Origin: a virus
Lineage: Duplodnaviria > Heunggongvirae > Uroviricota > Caudoviricetes
Length of the DNA: 32,745 nucleotides
Virus record (IMG/VR): IMGVR_UViG_2531839479_000007
Strand: one strand, 5' to 3'
The position numbers and the translations under genes are program-made. Shown here one piece after another: positions 1 through 25,820 of the stretch; position 1 is the stretch's first letter; the number at the start of each line of letters is the position of its first letter. The notes under the pieces were generated by a model that was given only the letters and a program-made list of their open reading frames with translations, was not told where the DNA came from and made no database searches.

Positions 1-852
1 CTAGGATATCTTTCCATGACATTCTTTGAAGCGTTTTCCACTCCCGCAATGACATAAGGCATTTCTTGACATAGATTGTGGTGGACTCAAGTCAATTTCG
101 CTAAGCATCGAAAGTAATTCCTCTGCTGCAATTGCTTCTCCAATCATAACTTGAGTTAGACTTCTCATATGAATCAATAATTCTGCTACAATTTGAGATT
201 CTACAAAACTTTTAGTTTCTCCAGCGTCATTAGTAGCGGTATAGGTGACGCCACTCATATTTTCAGACAAAGCTTCAATAGCTGATTGATGGTATTGACT
301 GATAGGAGCATGCTTACTCACTACAATACCTATTACTTTATTATCTGAAGCTTTTAAAAGAGCTCCACCAGAATTTCCTGAGTTAAATGCCCCATTTACC
401 ACTAGATGTTTTTTTTGTCCCTTGGCGGTTTGGTATGAGTTAAATCCTGCTAGATAACCAACGGATAGTAACGGTGCAGGACCGTTGTATCCTAATGGGT
501 ATCCCCAAGTTGTTACTGATTCACCAACTTTAAGATCATTATCCTTAACAATACTTAGCCCACCAGTCTGGGTAATGGCAGGTCTCAGCACAGCTAAATC
601 GCGATCAGAATCTATCCATTTTTGAGAAATTGGAATCTTCTGTCCATAAGCTGAAATTGCGAAAATCTGATTTGTAGAGCATCCAGTGATAACATGCTCG
701 TTCGTTACTATTAACCCATTATCTATTAAAAAACCAGATCCTTTCGAGCCTGTCGCAGGACATATAATCATATAAACAGAATTTACTGATGAGCGTCCAA
801 CTTCACCCGTAGCGTCTAAAGTCCATTGAGTAGATATGGGGATATTGTTCAA
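1..852 (-). CDS. Trypsin-like (S1 family) serine protease with C-terminal SEC-C metal-binding motif; flanking gene outside the prophage
   Basis: 283-aa ORF; His/Asp/Ser triad contexts TNEHV, DLAVL, GNSGGAL; C-terminal CHCGSGKRFKECHGK matches the SEC-C motif; TTG start at 850-852 with AAGGAG 8 nt upstream; TAG stop at 1-3; visibly AT-rich. Confidence 0.6.
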   Translation of the reverse strand: MNNIPISTQWTLDATGEVGRSSVNSVYMIICPATGSKGSGFLIDNGLIVTNEHVITGCSTNQIFAISAYGQKIPISQKWIDSDRDLAVLRPAITQTGGLSIVKDNDLKVGESVTTWGYPLGYNGPAPLLSVGYLAGFNSYQTAKGQKKHLVVNGAFNSGNSGGALLKASDNKVIGIVVSKHAPISQYHQSAIEALSENMSGVTYTATNDAGETKSFVESQIVAELLIHMRSLTQVMIGEAIAAEELLSMLSEIDLSPPQSMSRNALCHCGSGKRFKECHGKIS

Positions 853-6584: not shown

Positions 6585-7778
6585 TTAGCTGTTGACCGAG
6601 TCCGACAGGTTCGCCAGATAGGTATCGGTGATGCGCTGGCGCAGGGTCAGGTTTTCCAGCGGCGGGACGGGGGTATAGTCGTAATCGATATACAGTTTCC
6701 CCACTTTCAGGGTCGCGGTGTCGTTCGACTCCGGGTCGTACCAGCAGAAGCCGTCAACGATATAACCACTGGTTTTCAGCTCGCGGAATTTGGCATTGAT
6801 ACCGGAAACGATGTCGCGAATGAGGGTCGGGGTAATGGGTTTATCCATCGCCCACGCGTGCGCCTCCGCCATCGTGTCGGCCAGTACCTGCGCGGTGCGG
6901 GTGTAGTTCTCAAACAGGAAAAGCGGATCATCCGAGCAGGTACGGTTTCCCCAAAACTTGAAACCATCATTGCGGATAAGCGTGGTGACACCGGCCTGAT
7001 TCAGCAGGTTGGCGTCGGTCGCCGGTTCCTGCAAATCCCACGATACTGAGGCACTGACGCCGGTCACACCGTTAACGCCAACGTTAGACAGGGTTTTATG
7101 CCAGCCGACCGTCTGGTCGATTTTGGCACGCAGGCCGAGCGCGCGCGCCGTCGCCCAAGCTGTCGCGGTCGCGTTCGCCGTGGTGTCCCATGCCAGAAAA
7201 TCAGGGAAGATGACCATCAGCTCACGCTGGCTGAAATTCTCGCGGTAGTCGATGGCCTCGGAAATGGTTTTACAGCCCCATGCGCTGACATAGCCAAAGG
7301 CGCGCAGGCTCTGACAGGTGGACGCGAGTGCGGTCGCCACCTCCTGTGAATCCAGCCCCGGCACGCCGAGAATCCGTGGCTTAACGCCGGTGACGGTTTT
7401 CGCCGTCAGCAGGGCTTTCAGCCCGGTATATTTGCCGTTTTCGTCGGTGGTGCCGATGATATTAGAAATGGTCTGTTTGTGCGCCGCCTCGGGGTTCTCC
7501 GGATCTTCAATACCTTCGGCCACACGCACGGCCACGATGACCGGCTTGCACTGGTCAGCGATAGCCTGCAGGGACGCCGACAGCGAGCCCTGTTTACCGG
7601 CCTTACCGATAGCGCTCTGCACGTTCGTAATGAGCACCGGCTCATTGAGGGGAAATGTTTTTTCGTCAGCATCGCTGGCCGTGCAGACCATGCCGATGAT
7701 GGCCGTCGAAACGGTGGAAATGGTGCGCACGCCATCGTTAATCTCGATGACCTGCACGCCGTGATGATAGTCACTCAT
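6585..7778 (-). CDS. FI: Contractile tail sheath protein FI
   Basis: 397 aa, gpFI-like; GGAG RBS upstream of ATG at 7776-7778. Confidence 0.9.
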   Translation of the reverse strand: MSDYHHGVQVIEINDGVRTISTVSTAIIGMVCTASDADEKTFPLNEPVLITNVQSAIGKAGKQGSLSASLQAIADQCKPVIVAVRVAEGIEDPENPEAAHKQTISNIIGTTDENGKYTGLKALLTAKTVTGVKPRILGVPGLDSQEVATALASTCQSLRAFGYVSAWGCKTISEAIDYRENFSQRELMVIFPDFLAWDTTANATATAWATARALGLRAKIDQTVGWHKTLSNVGVNGVTGVSASVSWDLQEPATDANLLNQAGVTTLIRNDGFKFWGNRTCSDDPLFLFENYTRTAQVLADTMAEAHAWAMDKPITPTLIRDIVSGINAKFRELKTSGYIVDGFCWYDPESNDTATLKVGKLYIDYDYTPVPPLENLTLRQRITDTYLANLSDSVNS

Positions 7779-7873
7779 CCGTTTAACTCCGTGGTTAAGG
7801 GGTGAGTGATATTTTCTGTTGTGTGGCGGGTGCGGGCTATTTGTCAGGGTTGGCTAAGGTCTGACACAACGAC

Positions 7874-7903
7874 GGGAAAGGAAAAGGCGGGCAACTGCCC
7901 GCC
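7874..7903 (-). terminator. Intrinsic terminator between G and FI (end of the V-G late operon)
   Basis: GGCGGGC / AACT / GCCCGCC hairpin at 7886-7903 followed on the minus strand by TTTTCCTTTC; lies 10 nt after the G stop. Confidence 0.55.
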
Positions 7904-7913
7904 AGATGTCGGA

Positions 7914-8492
7914 TCAGACTGGCAGCGGCGGCCATTCAATATCCGGAGCATCCTCCGGCTGGATGCGGCTCAGTAAAACACGGTATTTTTTCCATGCAAT
8001 GAGGTGCGTTTTTTCATCGTCGGTTGCCATCTCCAGATCAACGGAGTCCTGTAATGTCGCAACCGCAGTATTGGCCTGTTTAAGAAGCCTGTTTTTGTTG
8101 TTTTTCGCAGCCTCTGTCAATGCATTACGTGCAGCATCAGCATCATCAACCCATGTTTTACCATCCCATTTCTGCCACGGGTTTTCCGGCACAACCGGTG
8201 TTGTTCCTGCCGGATACTGACCCGGCTCGGTTATCTCCCTCTCATGACCTGTTTCGGTGTCATAGACAACCTCACCCCGGTGGTCTTCAGTGATAGCCCA
8301 GCAACCATTTTCAGTGTCATAAACCGGAATAAATCCGTCTCGGGTTTCCGGGGGCTTTTCACTGGTGCAGCAGGCGGGCAATCCGGTAAATGCCGGTATC
8401 AGGGCGTCACCTTTTCCAATAAATTCACAGGTGTCTGCACGAAAGTTATACACAGTGATAGTCCGGCTTTCTCCGGTCATTTTAAACGTCAT
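7914..8492 (-). CDS. G: Tail fiber assembly protein G (Tfa-like chaperone)
   Basis: 192 aa; C-terminal ...LIAWKKYRVLLSRIQPEDAPDIEWPPLPV is typical of tail fiber assembly proteins; ATG overlaps H stop (TAATG at 8490-8494). Confidence 0.85.
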   Translation of the reverse strand: MTFKMTGESRTITVYNFRADTCEFIGKGDALIPAFTGLPACCTSEKPPETRDGFIPVYDTENGCWAITEDHRGEVVYDTETGHEREITEPGQYPAGTTPVVPENPWQKWDGKTWVDDADAARNALTEAAKNNKNRLLKQANTAVATLQDSVDLEMATDDEKTHLIAWKKYRVLLSRIQPEDAPDIEWPPLPV

Positions 8493-10177
8493 TATGCGAG
8501 TCTCACGATATAGTTAAATGCGATGTTTTTGATGGTGTTTTCTGCATTACCCGACGCGGCGATCGTAATGGTGTGACCGTGTGCGCCAATAGCAACGGAG
8601 TGCGAGTGTGCGCCAATCCCGACATTATGATTGTGGGCACCAATCGCCACGGTATGCGCGTGATTACCTGCAGTTGATGTTGTTTTCGTTCCCGTCGCTA
8701 TTTCGTTACCGTCGGCGGCCTGTCCCCCGGCCTGATCTCCCCGGTGTACGGTAAAAGTGTGCGCATGGTTGCCGGTTGCATTAGTGGTTTTTGTCCCGTA
8801 GTCAAAGGTCGTGGTGGTTTTCGTTCCGTGGTCAAAAGCACTGGTGGTTTTCGTCCCTAAATCGGTGCTCGATGCGCTGGCACCGTGGGCGTGCGATTTA
8901 ATGCCGTCCTGCTCCTGAGACAAAATAGCGCGCCCACTTGCGGGTTTACCTTTGATTGTCCAGCCCCGCATATCAGGAATAACACCCGATGGGTACACCA
9001 CAGCAAGCAGCGGATACGCGGCTTTATCAAAAGTTTGTCCCTGCATGACGGCATAGCCAGCAGGAACACTGTCAGACGGCCACGCAACGGGAGCGCCTAC
9101 CGGAAAAACATCATCAGGCGTCCACGGTGTCCATGCGCCTGTTGAATACTGACTGCGCGAGTAGCTCCGGGAGCTGTTATAAACCCGGTATACCTGAGTC
9201 ACTCCGGCATTTTTATAAATGACCAGCGTCCCGGCGTTATTTTCAGGGTAATGTCTGGCGGCTGAGGTATTAGAATTCGCTGGCTGAAAGTAAATACCCG
9301 GCGTTTTAAGGGTGTCTAAATCCTCCGTTACCAGCCCAATAGCCTGACCGTCGAAAATATCCTTCGAGGTGACACTGGTGTCAGCATTCAGGGAATGTCC
9401 GTTAATTTTACGCGTGGAGGGAACGCGGCCATTAGCATTATCATTCGCCACTTTGACCGCTTTCGGTGTCGCAGCAAGCACCTCAGACACGCTGTCGGTG
9501 GCGCTACTGAGCTGGACAATCCCCTTCTGTGCCGTGGTCGCGTCCTGAGCCGTATATTTACCTTTCGCAAGGTCATACGCCACCTTGACCGCTTTCGGCG
9601 TTGCGGCGAGCGCCTCAGACGTGCTGTCGGTCGCACTGCTTAACTGCGTGAACCCTTTTTCTTTCAGCGTGGCGTCAGGATGGCGACGGGACTGCTCATG
9701 CTCTGCGAGTTTATCGTCGACATAATCCTGCGTCGCCATCACCAGTGTCGTATCGATGGACAGCTCGACGGTGTCGATATCGCTCACCATGATCACCATG
9801 CGCAGCGTCTGTGCGCGGCCTGACCCTTCCGCCAGTTCGGGCTTATAACTTTCGGCCATATTGCCGACCGCAATCAGCGTGCCGGTGTCATCGTAAAGCC
9901 CCATTTCACGCAGCCAGAAACCGCCGGTCTCCGGGGGGATCACCAGCTCCGCCACGACATAATTTTTATGTTTTTTGTCCAGGCTGATTTTGTTCAGCGC
10001 ATGGCGCCAGACCTCATTGACGAGTTTTGTCTGACTGGCGTCTGGTTCGGGCAGCTTACCGCCACCGTCCCCGACGGCCATCACCGCAAAATTGACTTTT
10101 TTCCCGTTCGGGAGCGTCGCCGCCGCCAGTTTTTCCGCACCGGCTCGGGTGATAACGGTTTTATATTTCACTGTCAT
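8492..10177 (-). CDS. H: Tail fiber protein H: conserved P2-like N-terminal shaft, divergent His-rich C-terminal tip
   Basis: 561 aa; N-terminus [20 protein letters not shown]... and repeated [23 protein letters not shown] motif as in P2 gpH; C-terminal HxH repeats (HAH, HNH, HSH, HGH). Confidence 0.9.
9448..9655 (-). repeat. Intragenic tandem direct repeat in H (two ~76-bp units 132 bp apart) encoding the tail-fibre repeat motif
   Basis: Units at 9448-9523 and 9580-9655 align with few mismatches and encode [25 protein letters not shown] / [25 protein letters not shown]. Confidence 0.6.
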
Positions 10178-10188
10178 TGTGTTCTCAC

Positions 10189-10719
10189 TTATCCGGGGTA
10201 AACCGTGATGATGTCGCCGTCGTAGGTCAGGGCTCCGGTGAAGAGATAACCCGGGATGTCCTGAATAATATTCAGGCCGATAAGATGGCGACTGGCTGGC
10301 TTTGCATCGGCAATCAGCCTTTCCATTTCGTAATACATTTCCTCGGTGATGCCGGTCTTCAGCACGCCGATATCAAGGCGAAACGTGCCCGGCGGGTCGT
10401 TCGTCTCCCACCACTCCGTCACGTTAATCAGATACCCGAGCGGCTCGACCACACGACGCACCGCGCCTATCGTCCCTTTATGCGCATGGATAAACCACGC
10501 GCTGCGGATAACCTCGCGTTTGGTTTCTTCCGGCCAGCTCTCATCCCAGCGATCAACCGAAAACGCCCAGGCCAGCCACGGCAGCAGATTTGCGGGGCAG
10601 TTGTCAGGGTTCCAGAGGTGACGCAGCGGGACAGGGGTATTTTCGATATCCGCGCAGGCGCGCGCCGCCGCCACCTCAAGCGGCGACGAGCCCACCGGCA
10701 GCAAACGGTTATCACTCAT
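10189..10719 (-). CDS. I: Baseplate assembly protein I
   Basis: 176 aa, same length as P2 gpI; overlaps the end of J. Confidence 0.9.
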
Positions 10720-11625: not shown

Positions 11626-11976
11626 TTAACTCAGTGGAAGGGTGATAGAAAAAGGCTGGCCTGATGCCGAACGCGTGCCGGTCATATCGACGTACATCGC
11701 GCCGTCATCCTCTCCGCGTTCAAAGGTGATGGTCGACAAACTGACGCGCGGTTCCCACTTCTGGATCGCGGAGTAGCACGCGGCCATAATCTGCAGACGC
11801 AGCGCCGGGGTCTGCGGCTGGTCAATCAGTGCAGACAACAGCGAGCCATATTCGCGGCGCATGACCCGCGATCCCACCGGCGTGACCAGAATGTCGCGCA
11901 CGCTTTGCCTGATGTGCTCAACCTCAGAAATACTGAGGCCGGTCTGGCTGTTCATTCCCAGATAACGCACCGTCAT
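11626..11976 (-). CDS. W: Baseplate wedge protein W (gp25-like)
   Basis: 116 aa, gpW-like; ATG overlaps V stop (ATGA at 11973-11976). Confidence 0.9.
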   Translation of the reverse strand: MTVRYLGMNSQTGLSISEVEHIRQSVRDILVTPVGSRVMRREYGSLLSALIDQPQTPALRLQIMAACYSAIQKWEPRVSLSTITFERGEDDGAMYVDMTGTRSASGQPFSITLPLS

Positions 11977-12614
11977 TTGACCCCCTTCGTCCAGTTTCCG
12001 CCTGGCTCCACGCCACCATGATCGTGGTCATCGACCTGCACGCCATTTGAGGTAAATTTCCCGCCGGTGTGCTCGATGTTCCCCGACATCGTCCCGCCTT
12101 TTTTCACTTCGAGCGTGCCGGTTGTCAGCTTGTTGGTACACACCACCTCGGGTGTATCGAGGGTGATGCGGGTGGATGCCTTAACCAGTACCAGCGGCAC
12201 GGTGGCAGTAATGGACTCTGATGCAATGACGTCGGCAGTTTTAATACCGGACACGGTGAGCGCCCCGTTTTCGGGTTCGTACTCAATAACCGCCCCGTCA
12301 GGAAACGAGACATGCAGGGCATCGGGTGAGGCAGACGGCGCGGGATGGTCATCAGAGAAAATACCAGGCAGCACAAAGGCAGTGTCGAGTTCGCCCCCAA
12401 TGGCAAGAATGAGCACCTGCTCGCCAACGGAAGGAGCCCACCACACCCGTGAGCGACCGGCGCGACAGGTCAGCCAGTTAAGCCACGTGGTTTGCATCCC
12501 TCCGGTCTGCACACGACAAAGCCCCTCAACGGGTTCAACGTCTGTCACAACGCCGGTGCGGATAAGGTTGCGGATCGCACGAGCGATTTCCTGCAGAGAA
12601 GTTAAATTGTTCAT
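11973..12614 (-). CDS. V: Baseplate spike protein V
   Basis: Start set at MNNLTSLQEIARAIRNL (ATG 12612-12614), matching the P2 gpV N-terminus; the ORF-track start at 12716 is a longer upstream extension. Confidence 0.85.
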   Translation of the reverse strand: MNNLTSLQEIARAIRNLIRTGVVTDVEPVEGLCRVQTGGMQTTWLNWLTCRAGRSRVWWAPSVGEQVLILAIGGELDTAFVLPGIFSDDHPAPSASPDALHVSFPDGAVIEYEPENGALTVSGIKTADVIASESITATVPLVLVKASTRITLDTPEVVCTNKLTTGTLEVKKGGTMSGNIEHTGGKFTSNGVQVDDHDHGGVEPGGNWTKGVK

Positions 12615-12697
12615 GGGGAAAGGATGCCGCCGGGGAGGGGCAGCAGCAATCGAGCGGGGTTTTATGAGGGATGAAACAACAAACGGCAACTCAGACT

Positions 12698-12715
12698 TGT
12701 CATTACAGACCAACA
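12698..12715 (-). promoter_or_regulatory. Candidate Ogr-dependent late promoter element upstream of V (TGT-N12-ACA dyad)
   Basis: TGTCATTACAGACCAACA: TGT at 12698-12700 and ACA at 12713-12715 separated by 12 nt, about 90 bp upstream of the V start. Confidence 0.4.
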
Positions 12716-13003
12716 CCTCCTTTGAGGGGCTGATTGAAACCTAGTCGAACATCCAGCGTTGTTCCTTAGCTGCGTGACAATGTTTTTGAACACAGTATTG
12801 GCCAAAGCTGAGCCGAAATTGGCATCCTACGAAAAATTCGATTTCTCTAGCCAGTAGTTCGATTTTAGATTTTGTATTACCTTACTCAATGAGTTTTTGG
12901 TCAGATTTTTAACACACTCAACGCCAAAAGCGGGCGCTCACGTAAACATATCCATTTTTGCTTGAGACATATTTACTATTACAGTGAGCAGTTTATCTGT
13001 TTT

Positions 13004-13032
13004 CCAAAAGAGGCAGAGGTATATTTCTGCCT
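13004..13032 (-). terminator. Candidate terminator downstream of the moron gene
   Basis: AGGCAGA / 8-nt loop / TCTGCCT hairpin at 13011-13032 followed on the minus strand by CTTTTGG; starts 14 nt below the moron stop. Confidence 0.35.
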
Positions 13033-13045
13033 AGCGCATGTTGCC

Positions 13046-14032
13046 TTATGGATTTGACTTCCCTGAAGTCTCTTTTTTTATTTCAAATTTCCCACCCTTG
13101 AACATGATATTCGAATCTTTGATTCCATACAAAAGCATTTCATAAGGATGGTTAATTTTTTGTTCTTTTGTAGCGATACTGGAATTCATCAATTGCAACA
13201 AAGCCACATGATGTTCACTCGCCCCTAACTCTACCATTTTGGTAGCCATGTTGCTTATCTGTTCTCGTTTTAAAAAATCTTCCCGGAGAGAAAGTAACGT
13301 TAAACTTCGTGCGTTACAAAACTTTATCATGTAAACAACAAACGCACCTAACCCAATATAGGAAAACGATAATGCTAAATAAATAGACGGTGTGGTTATT
13401 ATGTTTTGCCCAAATATAAGAAAACCCAGCAGGCCAAAAAAATAAAAAACATTCACCAAAATAAACATGTTACTCATCAGAGCCTTTGTACTTCGAGTTG
13501 CATCATATTCTTTCTCCAGATGCTCCAAAAATGATGATATTTTTATTAAATTTAACTTTTCAATTGTTTCCTTCTCTAAAATCTTGAATTGCTCACTCTC
13601 TCTAATTAATTTTTTGGTAGTGTCCTCCACTGTATCATGCAATGATTCAGTGATCGCCTCTTCAATTTTATTTTCAGAAAACACGCTTGTTAAAGCGTAA
13701 TTGGCTAATTCCTTTTGTCTTTTCTCGATTAAACTTTCGACATTTTCTCTGTACGCATCAAAATATTTTTGACCACTCTCGTTTAGCAATATTTTACGAA
13801 TATGAAATTTTATTTTCTCATCTGCCATTGGTTGGCTTTCAGTGTTACCATTCTTCTTTGTGTTATTATCTTTAGTTTCCGCATTATACCTGTCCTTGCC
13901 TGAATCAAGTAAGTTCCGTGAAATGAATTTCACCACAGGACCACGCAGAATAGCTATAGCTATTGCCATTGCAAGAATGAATGGTGAAGCATCAATAAAT
14001 GATCGCGCAAATACGAAAGAGATTTCACTCAT
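13046..14032 (-). CDS. AT-rich moron: predicted membrane protein of unknown function (N-terminal TM helix, charged central region, two further TM helices, soluble C-terminal domain)
   Basis: Start set at ATG 14030-14032 (AGGGA 8 nt upstream); hydrophobic stretches SPFILAMAIAIAIL, MFILVNVFYFFGLLGFLIFG, IYLALSFSYIGLGAFVVYMIKF; sharp drop in GC relative to V and S on either side. Confidence 0.6.
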   Translation of the reverse strand: MSEISFVFARSFIDASPFILAMAIAIAILRGPVVKFISRNLLDSGKDRYNAETKDNNTKKNGNTESQPMADEKIKFHIRKILLNESGQKYFDAYRENVESLIEKRQKELANYALTSVFSENKIEEAITESLHDTVEDTTKKLIRESEQFKILEKETIEKLNLIKISSFLEHLEKEYDATRSTKALMSNMFILVNVFYFFGLLGFLIFGQNIITTPSIYLALSFSYIGLGAFVVYMIKFCNARSLTLLSLREDFLKREQISNMATKMVELGASEHHVALLQLMNSSIATKEQKINHPYEMLLYGIKDSNIMFKGGKFEIKKETSGKSNP

Positions 14033-14075
14033 AAACATTTCCCTATCTAAAATCAAAGAGTTTACTTTTACCCAT

Positions 14076-14104
14076 ATTTTCTACTGACTGAACCAGTTTG
14101 ACAA
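14076..14104 (-). promoter_or_regulatory. Candidate sigma70-type promoter for the moron gene
   Basis: Minus strand TTGTCA (plus 14099-14104), 17-nt spacer, GAAAAT (plus 14076-14081), about 45 nt upstream of the ATG; weak -10, so tentative. Confidence 0.25.
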
Positions 14105-14345
14105 GAGAGATAAGCATCTTTAATATCGATTTTGCCCATTAGGCATGAAAATAAAAAATACCACATGAAATCAATATCATACAATGACCACGCGTTGACC
14201 TCATCCATAACCAATAAATTATCTGATCATGAAATTCTTGATATGCATTGCAGAATTCGATTTCCACCATTTCGCTTTTAGATGTTCATCAAATATCAAC
14301 ACCCCACTATCAGTAGTTGACAGATCAACTCGTAGCTAATTCAAA

Positions 14346-14786
14346 TCAGATGAGTAAAAAAAGATCCTCAATTAATTGTATATCGTTCCTGCTAAATCCG
14401 AGTAACTGGCGTTCTGGATATTGCACGTCCTGAGCATGAGGGTTTGGCCGGTCTTTGAGTCCGAACTGATGAATCTGCGCGATGCGTTGCACCTTGCCAG
14501 TGAATTCCACCACGGCAGTATCATTGCGGCCACTGGCTTTCATGTAGCGACTGGTTCGCAACTTCTGAAACATCGCCCGTTTAATGCGTCCTTTTTTTGC
14601 CCTCAGCGGCTGGCGTTTTCGTGCCTGATACGGCGTGCCATCAGGTGCTTTTTGCTGTTTGATTCGTTGCTGTTGCGATCTGCGCAGTTCCTTCGCAATC
14701 TCAGCGGCCAGCTTGCGCCGACCCACCGGTGATATTGCCGCAATCAGTCCCGCAAGTTTGTCATCAAAAGGTTTAAATTCATTCAT
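14346..14786 (-). CDS. S: Tail completion protein S
   Basis: 146 aa, gpS-like; ATG at 14784-14786 overlapping the R stop. Confidence 0.9.
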   Translation of the reverse strand: MNEFKPFDDKLAGLIAAISPVGRRKLAAEIAKELRRSQQQRIKQQKAPDGTPYQARKRQPLRAKKGRIKRAMFQKLRTSRYMKASGRNDTAVVEFTGKVQRIAQIHQFGLKDRPNPHAQDVQYPERQLLGFSRNDIQLIEDLFLLI

Positions 14787-23058: not shown

Positions 23059-24171
23059 TTAACCAACCCTTGCTTTTTTATATGGACCACAACTCCAACT
23101 AAAGAAATTCTTACCTAACTTATACCATTTATCAGAAAGCACTGGTGTTAGGTGAGGATTATATTTTTTTAAACTTCCCTTTTGTATATATTTCAATGTA
23201 TTGCTGAGCAAATTCTCTCCAAAACCATCATAACTTACACAAGCAGCGTTGCAGCTACAACGTTTTGATTCGATATACTCACAATCATATTTTATATCAA
23301 GCTTCTTTAATATCGGACGCCAATATGCACCATGTTTTCGATCGAGTTCAAGGGCTGTTTTAAAATCAAAACCTTTTTTATGGTCAATATAAAATTTTAC
23401 TGATTCATCTACGGAGCAAAGATGCTTAAAGAAAATGAGAGATTTTTCTTTTTGTTGCAATTGACTTTGACTTCTTAATACATCTTCAATTGTCGATAAA
23501 GGAACTAGAGATTCTATTTCATGTACATCTAAAATCTCCACGAAACCTGAGCGAGTAATTTGTGAGCCCAAAAAATGTGAGCAAGTACCTCCGAATGGGG
23601 CTCCAGGATGTTTTTTGTCATTATCCACAATACAAAAAACTATCTCATTATTTTGAATTGCACGCTCGAATATATCCTTAGTACTGCCCCCACCGCCATT
23701 TAGAGCGATAAAACCCATTTCGCAGCGAGATAAGTTAATACCTTCGGCATAATGAGCCGCTATAACCTTAAAAAAATCAGAATCCAAAGGATTTTCACAT
23801 ACTATTTTCGTTTTTTGCAATTGTGCCGAGTCATTAAAATACAATGGACCACAAACAAATTTAAAAGATTCACCGATCTGAACCCATTTAAATGATTTAT
23901 CACTAATATTAAAGTCGACAGATACATAAAATGAGACCTGATCCAAGATAGCATAGTACTCTGTTAGACCCGACAAAGCCTCTTGCGCGTAACTTTTTGA
24001 TGAAAGGCTATAAAGCCCGCTTTGATCATTGATAATAGTTTTAAAAAAAACCCTTGCCCCTATAACCAAGTGTTTTTGTTCAGCGAATGCCCGAAGTATA
24101 TTTTCAACCGCTATGGCAAATGAGTTATTTAGCACCTTCTCAGGTGTCGCATTTTCGATATTAATCAACAT
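23059..24171 (-). CDS. Cargo gene 2: 370-aa partner protein of the ATPase, unknown function (possible Toprim-like E...DxD core; Cys-rich C-terminus)
   Basis: ATG at 24169-24171 only 2 nt after the ATPase TAG stop; AT-rich; ...RCEMGFIALNGGGGS...IVFCIVDNDKK... could be Toprim-like; C-terminal CEYIESKRCSCNAAC cluster. Confidence 0.6.
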   Translation of the reverse strand: MLINIENATPEKVLNNSFAIAVENILRAFAEQKHLVIGARVFFKTIINDQSGLYSLSSKSYAQEALSGLTEYYAILDQVSFYVSVDFNISDKSFKWVQIGESFKFVCGPLYFNDSAQLQKTKIVCENPLDSDFFKVIAAHYAEGINLSRCEMGFIALNGGGGSTKDIFERAIQNNEIVFCIVDNDKKHPGAPFGGTCSHFLGSQITRSGFVEILDVHEIESLVPLSTIEDVLRSQSQLQQKEKSLIFFKHLCSVDESVKFYIDHKKGFDFKTALELDRKHGAYWRPILKKLDIKYDCEYIESKRCSCNAACVSYDGFGENLLSNTLKYIQKGSLKKYNPHLTPVLSDKWYKLGKNFFSWSCGPYKKARVG

Positions 24172-24173
24172 AA

Positions 24174-25730
24174 CTACTTACCCGAGAAAAAGCCAACCGG
24201 CCAATTTTTTAGGAAACCATTCTCGTCAAAATAAGATTTCTTAACTATAGTCTGCTGCTTATCATCTTTTTCAAATACCAGTATTGAAATATCATCCTGT
24301 GAAAGACTTTCATTTTCCTCAATATATTCACCAAGTGCTTCAATCATGGTCTGGCTATGTGTCTCAAAAATTATCTTCAAATCTACATTATTTTCTTTTG
24401 CTTTAGTTACTACTTTTGCAAAAATACTTGCTAAATTATGCTGATATGACGGATGTAAATGCAATTCTGGCTGCTCAATGATAAATGTTATAGGTTTTCT
24501 AACCGTGGTAGCACGACGTTCTGTCTCAAGCCAAATGGCTGTAACTATCGGCAAAACCTGAGAATAACCAAACCCCATATCACTAACATTATAGTTCTCA
24601 CTATTTTCACCGGTGTTTATTAAAATTGCAAAGTGAGAGCCACTTTGTTCAACCTTGATAATGAAATCAAAATTTAACTTTGTCCAATCTTCAAATTTTG
24701 ATTTATCAGCCGGTCTTAATGAATTCAAAAGCATTGCAAGATTGGAACCAGTATGATCTATCTCATTAACCTGTAAATCTTGAAAACGATAAAATCTTTC
24801 TGATGTAGCACGCAGTGGAGCTATGTACTTTACATTTCTGAATGAATCTGACAAGGATGTATTTATTATATCTATAAGATTATTAATATTCCATCCAATT
24901 ATAAATGGATATAACTCATTCATTATTTCATCATGTTGAAATTCAAAGTTTCTACTAAAAACTTTTTGTTCCTTAAATAGAAAAGCAACTAATTTACTAG
25001 CGTACGCTTTGGGTATAAAGCCAATTCTTTTGAATGCCTCTGTCACTTGATTTATATCAGATTTAGTATGGAAATATTTCTTTATATATTTCGCCGCTGA
25101 ATCAATAAATGACAATTCTAACGCCCTGTCATGCCTAGAATGTCTCAAATAGAATGATGTGCTTGGAGGAGGACTGTCTTCCTTACCCTTCAAAATTAGA
25201 TTTGGTATGAACTGCCCAAGATTTTTAGCTATTATCCCATCACGCTCTATTGTTTTATCATCTGATTCAATGAGTAATTTAACATTACTACTCTCATCCA
25301 TTGAAATAAATATTGTTAAATCAGCCAATATAAGCTTAATCGTTTTCGTTTTTGTTTTTTTATCTTTAGAGTAAACAGTTAACTCTGCTTCAATATCTGT
25401 TGGTTGCTTTGCTAAATCAGTAGAACGATAATATGTATATCTTTGTGAAACCTCTGGCGGAATTGAGAGTGAAAAACTAAACGTAATTTCTTTTTTTTCA
25501 GAGTTTCGGGAAAGTACATCTGTAAAATCGCCAAAATCCACATATCTCCCATACCATAGTATTGGGCCAGTAGTATTTTCTTCTACAGATTGACGAAGTA
25601 AAGGAAATGTGCGCAATAGGGAACTTTTACCACTGCTGTTCTTACCAACAAATACTGTAATTGGTTTTAAATCAATAAACGTTTTGTTGACAAAGCTCCT
25701 GAAGTTTTGAAGACCTATACCCTTAATCAT
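24174..25730 (-). CDS. Cargo gene 1: ABC/OLD-family (AAA_15/AAA_21-like) ATPase without a C-terminal Toprim domain
   Basis: Start set at MIKGIGLQNFRSF (ATG 25728-25730, GGAG 6 nt upstream); Walker A GKNSSGKSS, Walker B/D-loop ITFIIEQPELHLHP, H-loop IIFETHS; ORF-track start at 25802 is TTG inside the cos-like sequence. Confidence 0.75.
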   Translation of the reverse strand: MIKGIGLQNFRSFVNKTFIDLKPITVFVGKNSSGKSSLLRTFPLLRQSVEENTTGPILWYGRYVDFGDFTDVLSRNSEKKEITFSFSLSIPPEVSQRYTYYRSTDLAKQPTDIEAELTVYSKDKKTKTKTIKLILADLTIFISMDESSNVKLLIESDDKTIERDGIIAKNLGQFIPNLILKGKEDSPPPSTSFYLRHSRHDRALELSFIDSAAKYIKKYFHTKSDINQVTEAFKRIGFIPKAYASKLVAFLFKEQKVFSRNFEFQHDEIMNELYPFIIGWNINNLIDIINTSLSDSFRNVKYIAPLRATSERFYRFQDLQVNEIDHTGSNLAMLLNSLRPADKSKFEDWTKLNFDFIIKVEQSGSHFAILINTGENSENYNVSDMGFGYSQVLPIVTAIWLETERRATTVRKPITFIIEQPELHLHPSYQHNLASIFAKVVTKAKENNVDLKIIFETHSQTMIEALGEYIEENESLSQDDISILVFEKDDKQQTIVKKSYFDENGFLKNWPVGFFSGK

Positions 25731-25801
25731 TCCTAGCTCCATTAGTTCAATAAAATCAATCGATTTTGAGACAATCTTAATATCTTTGACAGGCGCGCGC
25801 A

Positions 25802-25820
25802 ATGCTTACCCCGCCTCGCC
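25802..25820. other. cos-like site (19-nt cohesive-end sequence)
   Basis: Minus strand reads GGCGAGGCGGGGTAAGCAT, 17/19 identical to the P2 cohesive end as I recall it (GGCGAGGCGGGGAAAGCAC). Confidence 0.55.

Follow-up and report, generated by a model that had tools for sequence, protein, structure and literature searches.

AbiZ of Lactococcus lactis pTR2030, a DUF6161 protein, is a membrane-anchored abortive-infection protein encoded by a single gene on mobile DNA; it reportedly has two membrane helices, as Durmaz and Klaenhammer are said to have described in 2007. In a review, AbiZ is believed to act together with the holin of the phage, making the membrane more permeable and so bringing on early lysis (PMC13064643). 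RexB and the two- and four-transmembrane (2TM/4TM) effectors of CBASS, Pycsar and type III CRISPR are proposed to collapse the membrane once infection has been sensed by a separate component (RexA, a cyclase or Cas10), and transmembrane proteins in P2/P4 hotspots have been read as membrane-collapsing effectors (PMC9122126). Superinfection-exclusion (Sie) proteins such as SieB of lambda and P22, lactococcal Sie2009 and gp15 of HK97 are prophage-encoded inner-membrane proteins, often lying beside the integrase or repressor gene, that protect the lysogen. Here we analysed a 32,745-nt stretch of viral DNA (Caudoviricetes; IMG/VR record IMGVR_UViG_2531839479_000007), referred to below as the window, which is a P2-like prophage (Peduoviridae) with its late genes on the minus strand. 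Between the tail-completion gene S and the baseplate gene V of this prophage lies an AT-rich insert with a single gene (13046-14032, minus strand, stop codon included), whose product is the 328-amino-acid (aa) hypothetical protein WP_001290067.1. Our comparisons show that this cargo gene is real and under purifying selection, and that it is mobile cargo recurring at prophage defence hotspots and in mobile islands. An anti-phage role is its best explanation because of its genomic context, its modular conservation and an independent published prediction, and we favour, with a probability of roughly 0.45, a self-contained single-gene abortive-infection membrane protein that would act by disrupting the membrane.

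The layout of the protein invites comparison with these systems. Kyte-Doolittle hydropathy identified three hydrophobic segments at residues 13-35, 187-207 and 217-237, and residues 71-186 were rich in Lys and Glu (20 K/R and 24 D/E). The protein is predicted to have its N-terminus outside, followed by the first transmembrane helix (TM1; residues 13-35, 13928-13996, minus strand), which evolves faster than any other part of the protein. A variable, charged helical region would then extend through about 150 cytoplasmic residues (36-164 for its variable part, 13541-13927, minus strand), and we propose it as the sensor or regulatory part. It leads into a conserved juxtamembrane segment and a TM2-TM3 hairpin (residues 165-237, 13322-13540, minus strand; TM2 187-207, TM3 217-237), and the chain ends in a conserved C-terminal domain of 90 residues, also predicted to be cytoplasmic (residues 238-328, 13049-13321, minus strand). 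This topology is supported by the positive-inside rule in WP_001290067.1 and by one family member that carries a signal peptide and a DUF882 (Peptidase_M15) domain, taken as periplasmic, ahead of TM1. In the predicted arrangement, only about 12 N-terminal residues and an uncharged 9-residue loop would be exposed outside. The AlphaFold2 (AF2) model placed helices at residues 87-117 and 120-145 and a further helix that begins at 147 and runs continuously into TM2; its confidence (predicted local distance difference test, pLDDT) was at least 83 across residues 165-237, and residues 304-317 were of low confidence in the monomer.

Like AbiZ, the cargo protein would be a single-gene, membrane-anchored product of mobile DNA with a pair of membrane helices, and like AbiZ it has no recognisable domain or fold match. 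It differs in having an extra N-terminal membrane helix and a C-terminal signature of its own (HPYE...GGK); the host of AbiZ belongs to the Bacillota, whereas the hosts of the cargo family are Proteobacteria, and a lysis phenotype is ascribed to AbiZ only. The membrane collapse proposed for RexB and the 2TM/4TM effectors is a second likeness, but those effectors work with a separate sensor. No partner gene is conserved in the cargo family, and therefore sensing would have to be built into the protein itself. Models of 2TM or CARF-TM proteins gave only sporadic, non-significant matches in the family, and RexB has no sequence relation to it. Sie proteins share the prophage origin and the inner-membrane location; the cargo protein is larger, is predicted to be mostly cytoplasmic, and has relatives outside prophages as well.

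The insert stands out from its surroundings in composition. In a sliding profile, G+C stood at 0.55-0.64, sank to 0.31-0.40 over the stretch from about 12,700 to 14,350, and rose again beyond it; G+C was 0.354 at 12717-14345 compared with 0.569 and 0.560 in the late genes on either side, and 0.342 in the open reading frame (ORF) itself. By composition and patchy distribution, the AT-rich cargo island (no strand assigned) spans 12700-14345, between S (14346-14786, minus strand; tail completion and virion morphogenesis; 52% identity to P2 gpS) and the late promoter of V (11973-12614, minus strand, RefSeq start used; baseplate spike; 73% identity to P2 gpV). Both flanking core genes are named after the RefSeq annotation of an identical locus in E. 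coli WP2-S18-ESBL-07, where S, WP_001290067.1 and V follow in that order. The late promoter region of V is retained (12615-12690, minus strand) with its TTGT...ACA-type activator element. The TTGT (12679-12676) was invariant when the region upstream of V was aligned with P2, 186, ENT4 and three homologous loci, and the P2 record annotates an activator binding site upstream of V. Because this element and the leader are kept, the V-side edge of the cargo can be placed at about 12,690-12,700. We found no Rfam match in the insert and no repeats flanking the insertion. Among 5,426 complete genomes of E. coli, an identical 1,629 bp occurred in just 5. A first-pass annotation of the window, made from the sequence alone, had described about 1.6 kb of AT-rich DNA exactly between S and V, a single 328-aa ORF, and a product with an N-terminal membrane helix, a Lys/Glu-rich middle and two adjacent membrane helices; all of this was borne out, with correct coordinates, and to it we add that the gene shares the strand of the late genes.

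Only one real gene was found in the insert, on the same strand as S and V, with a Shine-Dalgarno-like motif (TAGGGA) 7 nt ahead of its ATG; it is supported by ORF calling, by annotation and by full-length homologs of 57-89% identity. Two upstream ORFs of 43 and 48 aa (14068-14270) were rejected as genes, since their frame is not conserved and the stretch ahead of the gene measures only 115-145 nt in the other S-V loci. The S-V junction itself is a variable site between core genes, as the first-pass annotation had stated, pointing to orf30 at this position in P2. It is empty in phage 186 (69 bp) and in PSP3, SEN1 and others (about 60-70 bp), and four different, unrelated genes occupy it in P2, ENT4, 613R3 and ST147-VIM1phi7.1. 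The occupant is a PIN_12 protein in Enterobacter phage ENT4 (L024:1308-2372), a pentapeptide-repeat protein annotated as 'YjcF' in vB_EcoM-613R3 (L025:1307-2143), and a 347-aa protein with a weakly LmuA-like N-terminus (2e-6) in Klebsiella phage ST147-VIM1phi7.1 (L026:1428-2471). P2 Orf30 and the other occupants resemble the cargo gene in lying at the same site between S and the V late promoter as non-essential single genes. Orf30 differs in length (261 aa) and in strand and has no sequence similarity to the cargo protein, and the other occupants are likewise unrelated. Lying at a variable site between core genes, with a composition unlike that of the host phage, the insert is best explained as a horizontally acquired single-gene cargo module (moron) of a P2-like prophage.

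The first-pass annotation had recognised no homolog, which turned out to be wrong. A word-indexed protein search returned 23 full-length clusters (58-99% identity), and an exhaustive HMMER search extended the family to at least 87 representatives at the 50% identity level, nearly all 290-360 aa long. Named members come from Pectobacterium, Enterobacter, Serratia, Dickeya and a metagenome-assembled genome of the Rhodospirillaceae, and species-representative genomes added family loci in Marinomonas, Vibrio, Thaumasiovibrio, Arcobacter and Desulfotalea. Widening the family by the word-indexed protein search yielded few new members, and a genome scan with close-family patterns yielded chance matches only. 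The 1+2 membrane layout (an N-terminal helix, about 150 residues and a helix pair) was kept in 68 of 70 representatives.

We then compared the selective constraint along the protein. The ratio of nonsynonymous to synonymous substitution rates (dN/dS, Nei-Gojobori) was 0.12 against the 89%-identical allele (L013) and 0.11 against the Pectobacterium copy, and it was very unevenly distributed: 0.4-0.8 over residues 1-40 (0.78 against L013) and 0.03-0.05 in the C-terminal half, with 0.04-0.05 in the TM2-TM3 segment (165-237) and 0.03-0.04 in the C-terminal domain (238-328). TM1 was 60% identical to that of the L013 allele, compared with 80-96% for the rest of the protein. Among close relatives, the N-terminal half was only 27-66% identical, whereas residues 165-325 were almost invariant. 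In the 23 relatives, residues 165-237 were nearly invariant, including the polar in-helix residues N188, N194, S222, S224 and Y225; the conservation of polar residues and of a G-x-G motif within the hairpin helices suggests helix packing or pore lining. Across 70 distant representatives (15-74% identity to the query), F231, R242, E251, E290, H295 and P296 were invariant, and Y297, E298, S307, G313 and G314 nearly so. The family signature of the C-terminal domain accordingly comprises R242, E251, E290, H295-P296-Y297-E298, S307 and G313-G314-K315, K315 completing the GGK at 313-315. A variable N-terminal half joined to a near-invariant C-terminal half is the pattern that would be expected of a sensor linked to an effector.

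Some distant members depart from the common layout. In P0043, P0061 and P0109, two or three extra N-terminal membrane helices replace the single TM1, and the N-terminal membrane module thus varies while the C-terminal module stays constant. The metagenomic protein P0075 (550 aa) is the sole member with a signal peptide and a DUF882/Peptidase_M15_2 domain (4e-49) before its TM1 equivalent; it may be either a real fusion hinting at a link to the cell wall or a gene-calling artefact.

The genomic positions of the relatives were informative. Homologs were found at the same S-V junction in Enterobacter and other P2-like prophages, as alleles of 64% and 89% identity. In Enterobacter ludwigii (L004-L007; L004, about 6,700-10,650), a P2-like remnant of about 4 kb lies among host genes in the order lysC-R-S-gene-V'-W-J'; V is frameshifted and J truncated, but the gene for the 330-aa homolog has stayed intact, and several assemblies and metagenomes show this same gene order. 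This suggests that the host has retained the cargo gene after prophage decay. In 186-like prophages, alleles lie directly after the integrase gene on the CI strand, overlapping it by 4 nt in one case, and by analogy with 186/P2 biology such copies should be transcribed with the lysogenic CI-int operon; scans for tRNA genes did not locate attachment (att) sites that would place these integrase-adjacent copies inside prophage borders. The Pectobacterium copy resides in a small chromosomal island. Among distant members, one lies inside a lambdoid prophage near xis-int. The neighbours of others are AbiEi/AbiEii at the transfer-messenger RNA locus of Dickeya, OLD-TOPRIM and HNH genes that border on a filamentous prophage, or transposases (IS91, IS110 or rve) and a group II intron. 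In all enterobacterial contexts the homologs were AT-rich (G+C 0.29-0.36 vs 0.47-0.56 in the surroundings), and no partner or antitoxin gene was conserved across the contexts of the family. Some neighbours are ordinary genes. Two unrelated genomes encode an Exo_endo_phos (endonuclease/exonuclease/phosphatase) protein no more than a few kb away from the family gene: Pectobacterium (L002:6161-7776), where an ASCH protein accompanies it, and Marinomonas MED121 (L029:13534-14883). This may be coincidence or a loose association.

Comparison with known families and systems gave little. The window protein had no significant match in Pfam, PADLOC v2, PHROGs or NCBIfam. The only sub-threshold matches were DUF2852 (19.6 bits, cut-off 22.5) and phrog_10554 (E = 0.019), and the best profile match among Protein Data Bank sequences had E = 0.076. 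Scanning 70 family members with these libraries likewise brought up nothing significant; PADLOC gave scattered weak matches, most frequently to LeoBC (best E = 7.6e-5; 5 of 70). The first-pass annotation had named homology to a degenerate piece of a known structural gene as one finding that would overturn its reading. This was rejected, as no holin, spanin, tail or other phage protein family in PHROGs, Pfam or NCBIfam matched. A homolog of P2 Orf30 was rejected as well (best BLASTP E = 1.0; Orf30 lies on the opposite strand to the late genes), as was a relative of lambda RexB or SieB, for which hhalign of the family profile gave probabilities of 0.2% and 0.1%, respectively. The published machine-learning study DefensePredictor includes precisely this protein, at this locus, in its Table S10 under the label 'predicted novel defense gene', with a mean log-odds of 5.29 against a cut-off of 4 (PMC13092281); among the searchable supplementary files of that study, WP_001290067.1 occurs in Table S10 only. 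The same table reports an HHblits match with a cluster of AbiZ/DUF6161, spanning 19% of the query at a probability of 78.9 (PMC13092281), a link that our searches did not reproduce. No AbiZ model in PADLOC matched the window protein or the family even at E <= 5. Membership in AbiZ/DUF6161 is therefore not established, because DUF6161 was matched in 2 of 70 members only and no AbiZ model was matched, but a protein that works like AbiZ is a reasonable model by analogy.

The abortive-infection reading can be put into a proposed mechanism. TM1 and the helical region, which make up the fast-evolving N-terminal part, would keep the protein in an inactive state until a cue from an infecting phage reaches them. 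The hairpin and the C-terminal module, both conserved, would thereupon assemble into oligomers and impair the inner membrane, either depolarising it or causing holin-like lysis too early, and the infected cell would die or lyse ahead of progeny production. We also consider, more tentatively, that the family may represent a new class of self-contained sensor-effector membrane protein, in which the variable N-terminal membrane and helical module detects a phage membrane event, such as holin accumulation or the insertion of an ejection protein, and releases the hairpin and the HPYE...GGK domain to form a lethal pore or bring on premature lysis. Such a protein would be a proteobacterial functional counterpart of AbiZ with an undescribed effector domain present at several genome sites.

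Several observations weigh against this reading. The window protein had no match in PADLOC-DB v2.0.0, even at E <= 5, and likewise none to DUF6161 at that threshold, the best match in the family being E = 1e-4; structure searches returned generic helical hairpins only. The DefensePredictor score is only modestly above its cut-off, and the defence call consists of context plus that score. Carriage is rare, the five E. coli carriers being all identical in sequence, and searches of 50,697 sequenced phage records and 72,556 plasmids turned up no homolog. AT-rich DNA in E. coli is also frequently silenced by H-NS. Expression raises a further difficulty. The first-pass annotation had credited the gene with a candidate promoter and terminator of its own and had inferred expression independent of the late operons. 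A sigma-70-like promoter candidate (TTGTCA-17-GAAAAT, 14076-14104, minus strand) lies about 45 nt upstream of the start codon with a 9/12 match to consensus; it is kept in L013, and its TTGTCA hexamer also occurs in the Enterobacter S-V loci L003 and L014. Promoter-like sites in the region were not more frequent than in shuffled sequence (8 vs 6.3 +/- 2.7 expected). A terminator-like hairpin (AGGCAGA-N8-TCTGCCT then CTTTTGG, 13004-13032, minus strand) lies 14 nt past the stop codon, with a 7-bp stem, -13.2 kcal/mol and z = -2.2; the stem is retained in one relative, L013, and the candidate falls below the T-run threshold of the terminator scan. After S there was no terminator-like structure (z = -0.46), whereas P2 has an annotated terminator there. 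Late read-through from S may occur, since the cargo gene is co-oriented with the late operon, and the gene could then be transcribed late in the lytic cycle of its own phage, which would be awkward for a suicide effector. Expression of the cargo gene independently of the late operons thus appears plausible but unproven, because of this co-orientation, the missing terminator after S and the chance-level promoter match.

Expressed by read-through from the O-to-S late operon, the protein might serve the prophage's own lytic cycle as a late accessory membrane protein for lysis timing or competitor exclusion. The late-gene strand, the lack of a terminator-like structure after S and a site two genes downstream of the lysis cassette agree with this, as does the member fused to DUF882/Peptidase_M15 if that domain is a cell-wall peptidase. 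We nevertheless regard it as the least probable of the four readings and improbable on the whole, as the family also occurs in the CI-int lysogenic operon and in non-phage islands and stays intact in a dead prophage remnant. The gene is moreover dispensable for the lytic cycle, because it is absent from all 50,697 phage records and the site is empty in phage 186. Another rival is superinfection exclusion, in which the protein, in the inner membrane of the lysogen, would block entry of the incoming genome by disturbing ejected tape-measure or channel proteins, without cell death. A prophage-encoded inner-membrane protein with relatives adjoining integrase and repressor would fit such a role, the lactococcal Sie and streptococcal Ltp genes being located by integrase and repressor, and the rapid evolution seen in TM1 and in the short N-terminus outside the membrane could be a way of keeping up with membrane-inserting proteins that differ from phage to phage. 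Yet nearly the whole protein, including both strongly conserved parts, is predicted to be cytoplasmic, its 328 aa are many for a protein of the Sie kind, neither SieB nor RexB of lambda resembles it, and members occur outside prophages beside Abi-type and nuclease genes. We consider exclusion unlikely, although it ranks second after abortive infection.

A role outside defence would make the gene a lysogenic-conversion or selfish element, for example an envelope-stress or colonisation factor or a hitch-hiking addiction-type toxin. No known defence domain was found in the protein, some neighbours of the family genes are ordinary, and prophage cargo sites also carry non-defence genes: P2 hotspots hold a cytolethal distending toxin and tail-fibre swaps (10.1101/2024.10.15.618418). 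Against this, no partner or antitoxin is conserved, the family lies repeatedly close to Abi, OLD-TOPRIM, HNH and PIN-type cargo sites, and the DefensePredictor score is positive. This alternative is in our view somewhat less likely than exclusion and more likely than a part in the phage's own late cycle. Abortive infection stays at the head of the ranking, and defence or exclusion, which the first-pass annotation had put forward, is the best-supported role in view of the genomic context and the published machine-learning prediction. Topology, expression in lysogens, anti-phage role and membrane mechanism are all inferences.

The S-V junction has the look of a cargo hotspot for defence that has received little study. 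In a survey of P2-like phages from 2026, the interval between integrase and att and the region of the tail genes are both named as minor hotspots of defence (PMC13586616), and the S-V site is not treated in the earlier papers on hotspots (10.1101/2024.10.15.618418; PMC9122126). If the predicted defence role is real, the family would be a compact one-gene membrane defence without name, domain assignment or structural relative, carried at two minor, little-studied P2-like sites, the integrase-att interval and the S-V junction. The membrane-acting abortive-infection proteins would gain a new effector module, and the S-V junction would prove a real defence hotspot. The N-terminal variability on a constant C-terminal half would also offer a natural system for mapping determinants of phage specificity. 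The gain is limited in that prophage cargo encoding membrane defence is a well-established idea and the exact protein has already been flagged computationally; the cargo protein is a new protein family in a well-known kind of system.

The prophage carries other cargo. A second AT-rich island (23059-25802, minus strand, G+C 0.338) occupies the classical P2 old/tin hotspot between the portal and replication genes. It encodes an AAA_15/AAA_21/DUF3696 ATPase that matches the PADLOC models NsnB (3.7e-55) and PDC-M55A (6.9e-46) as well as AriA-like models, and a 370-aa partner that weakly matches PDC-M55B (2e-4); by these matches it is probably a two-gene defence system. A third cargo site of the prophage is formed by a further AT-rich gene (1-852, minus strand, G+C 0.388), since it has ogr on one side and, on the other, the prophage end that adjoins host yegQ; the annotation of the identical E. 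coli record gives its product a trypsin-like peptidase domain.

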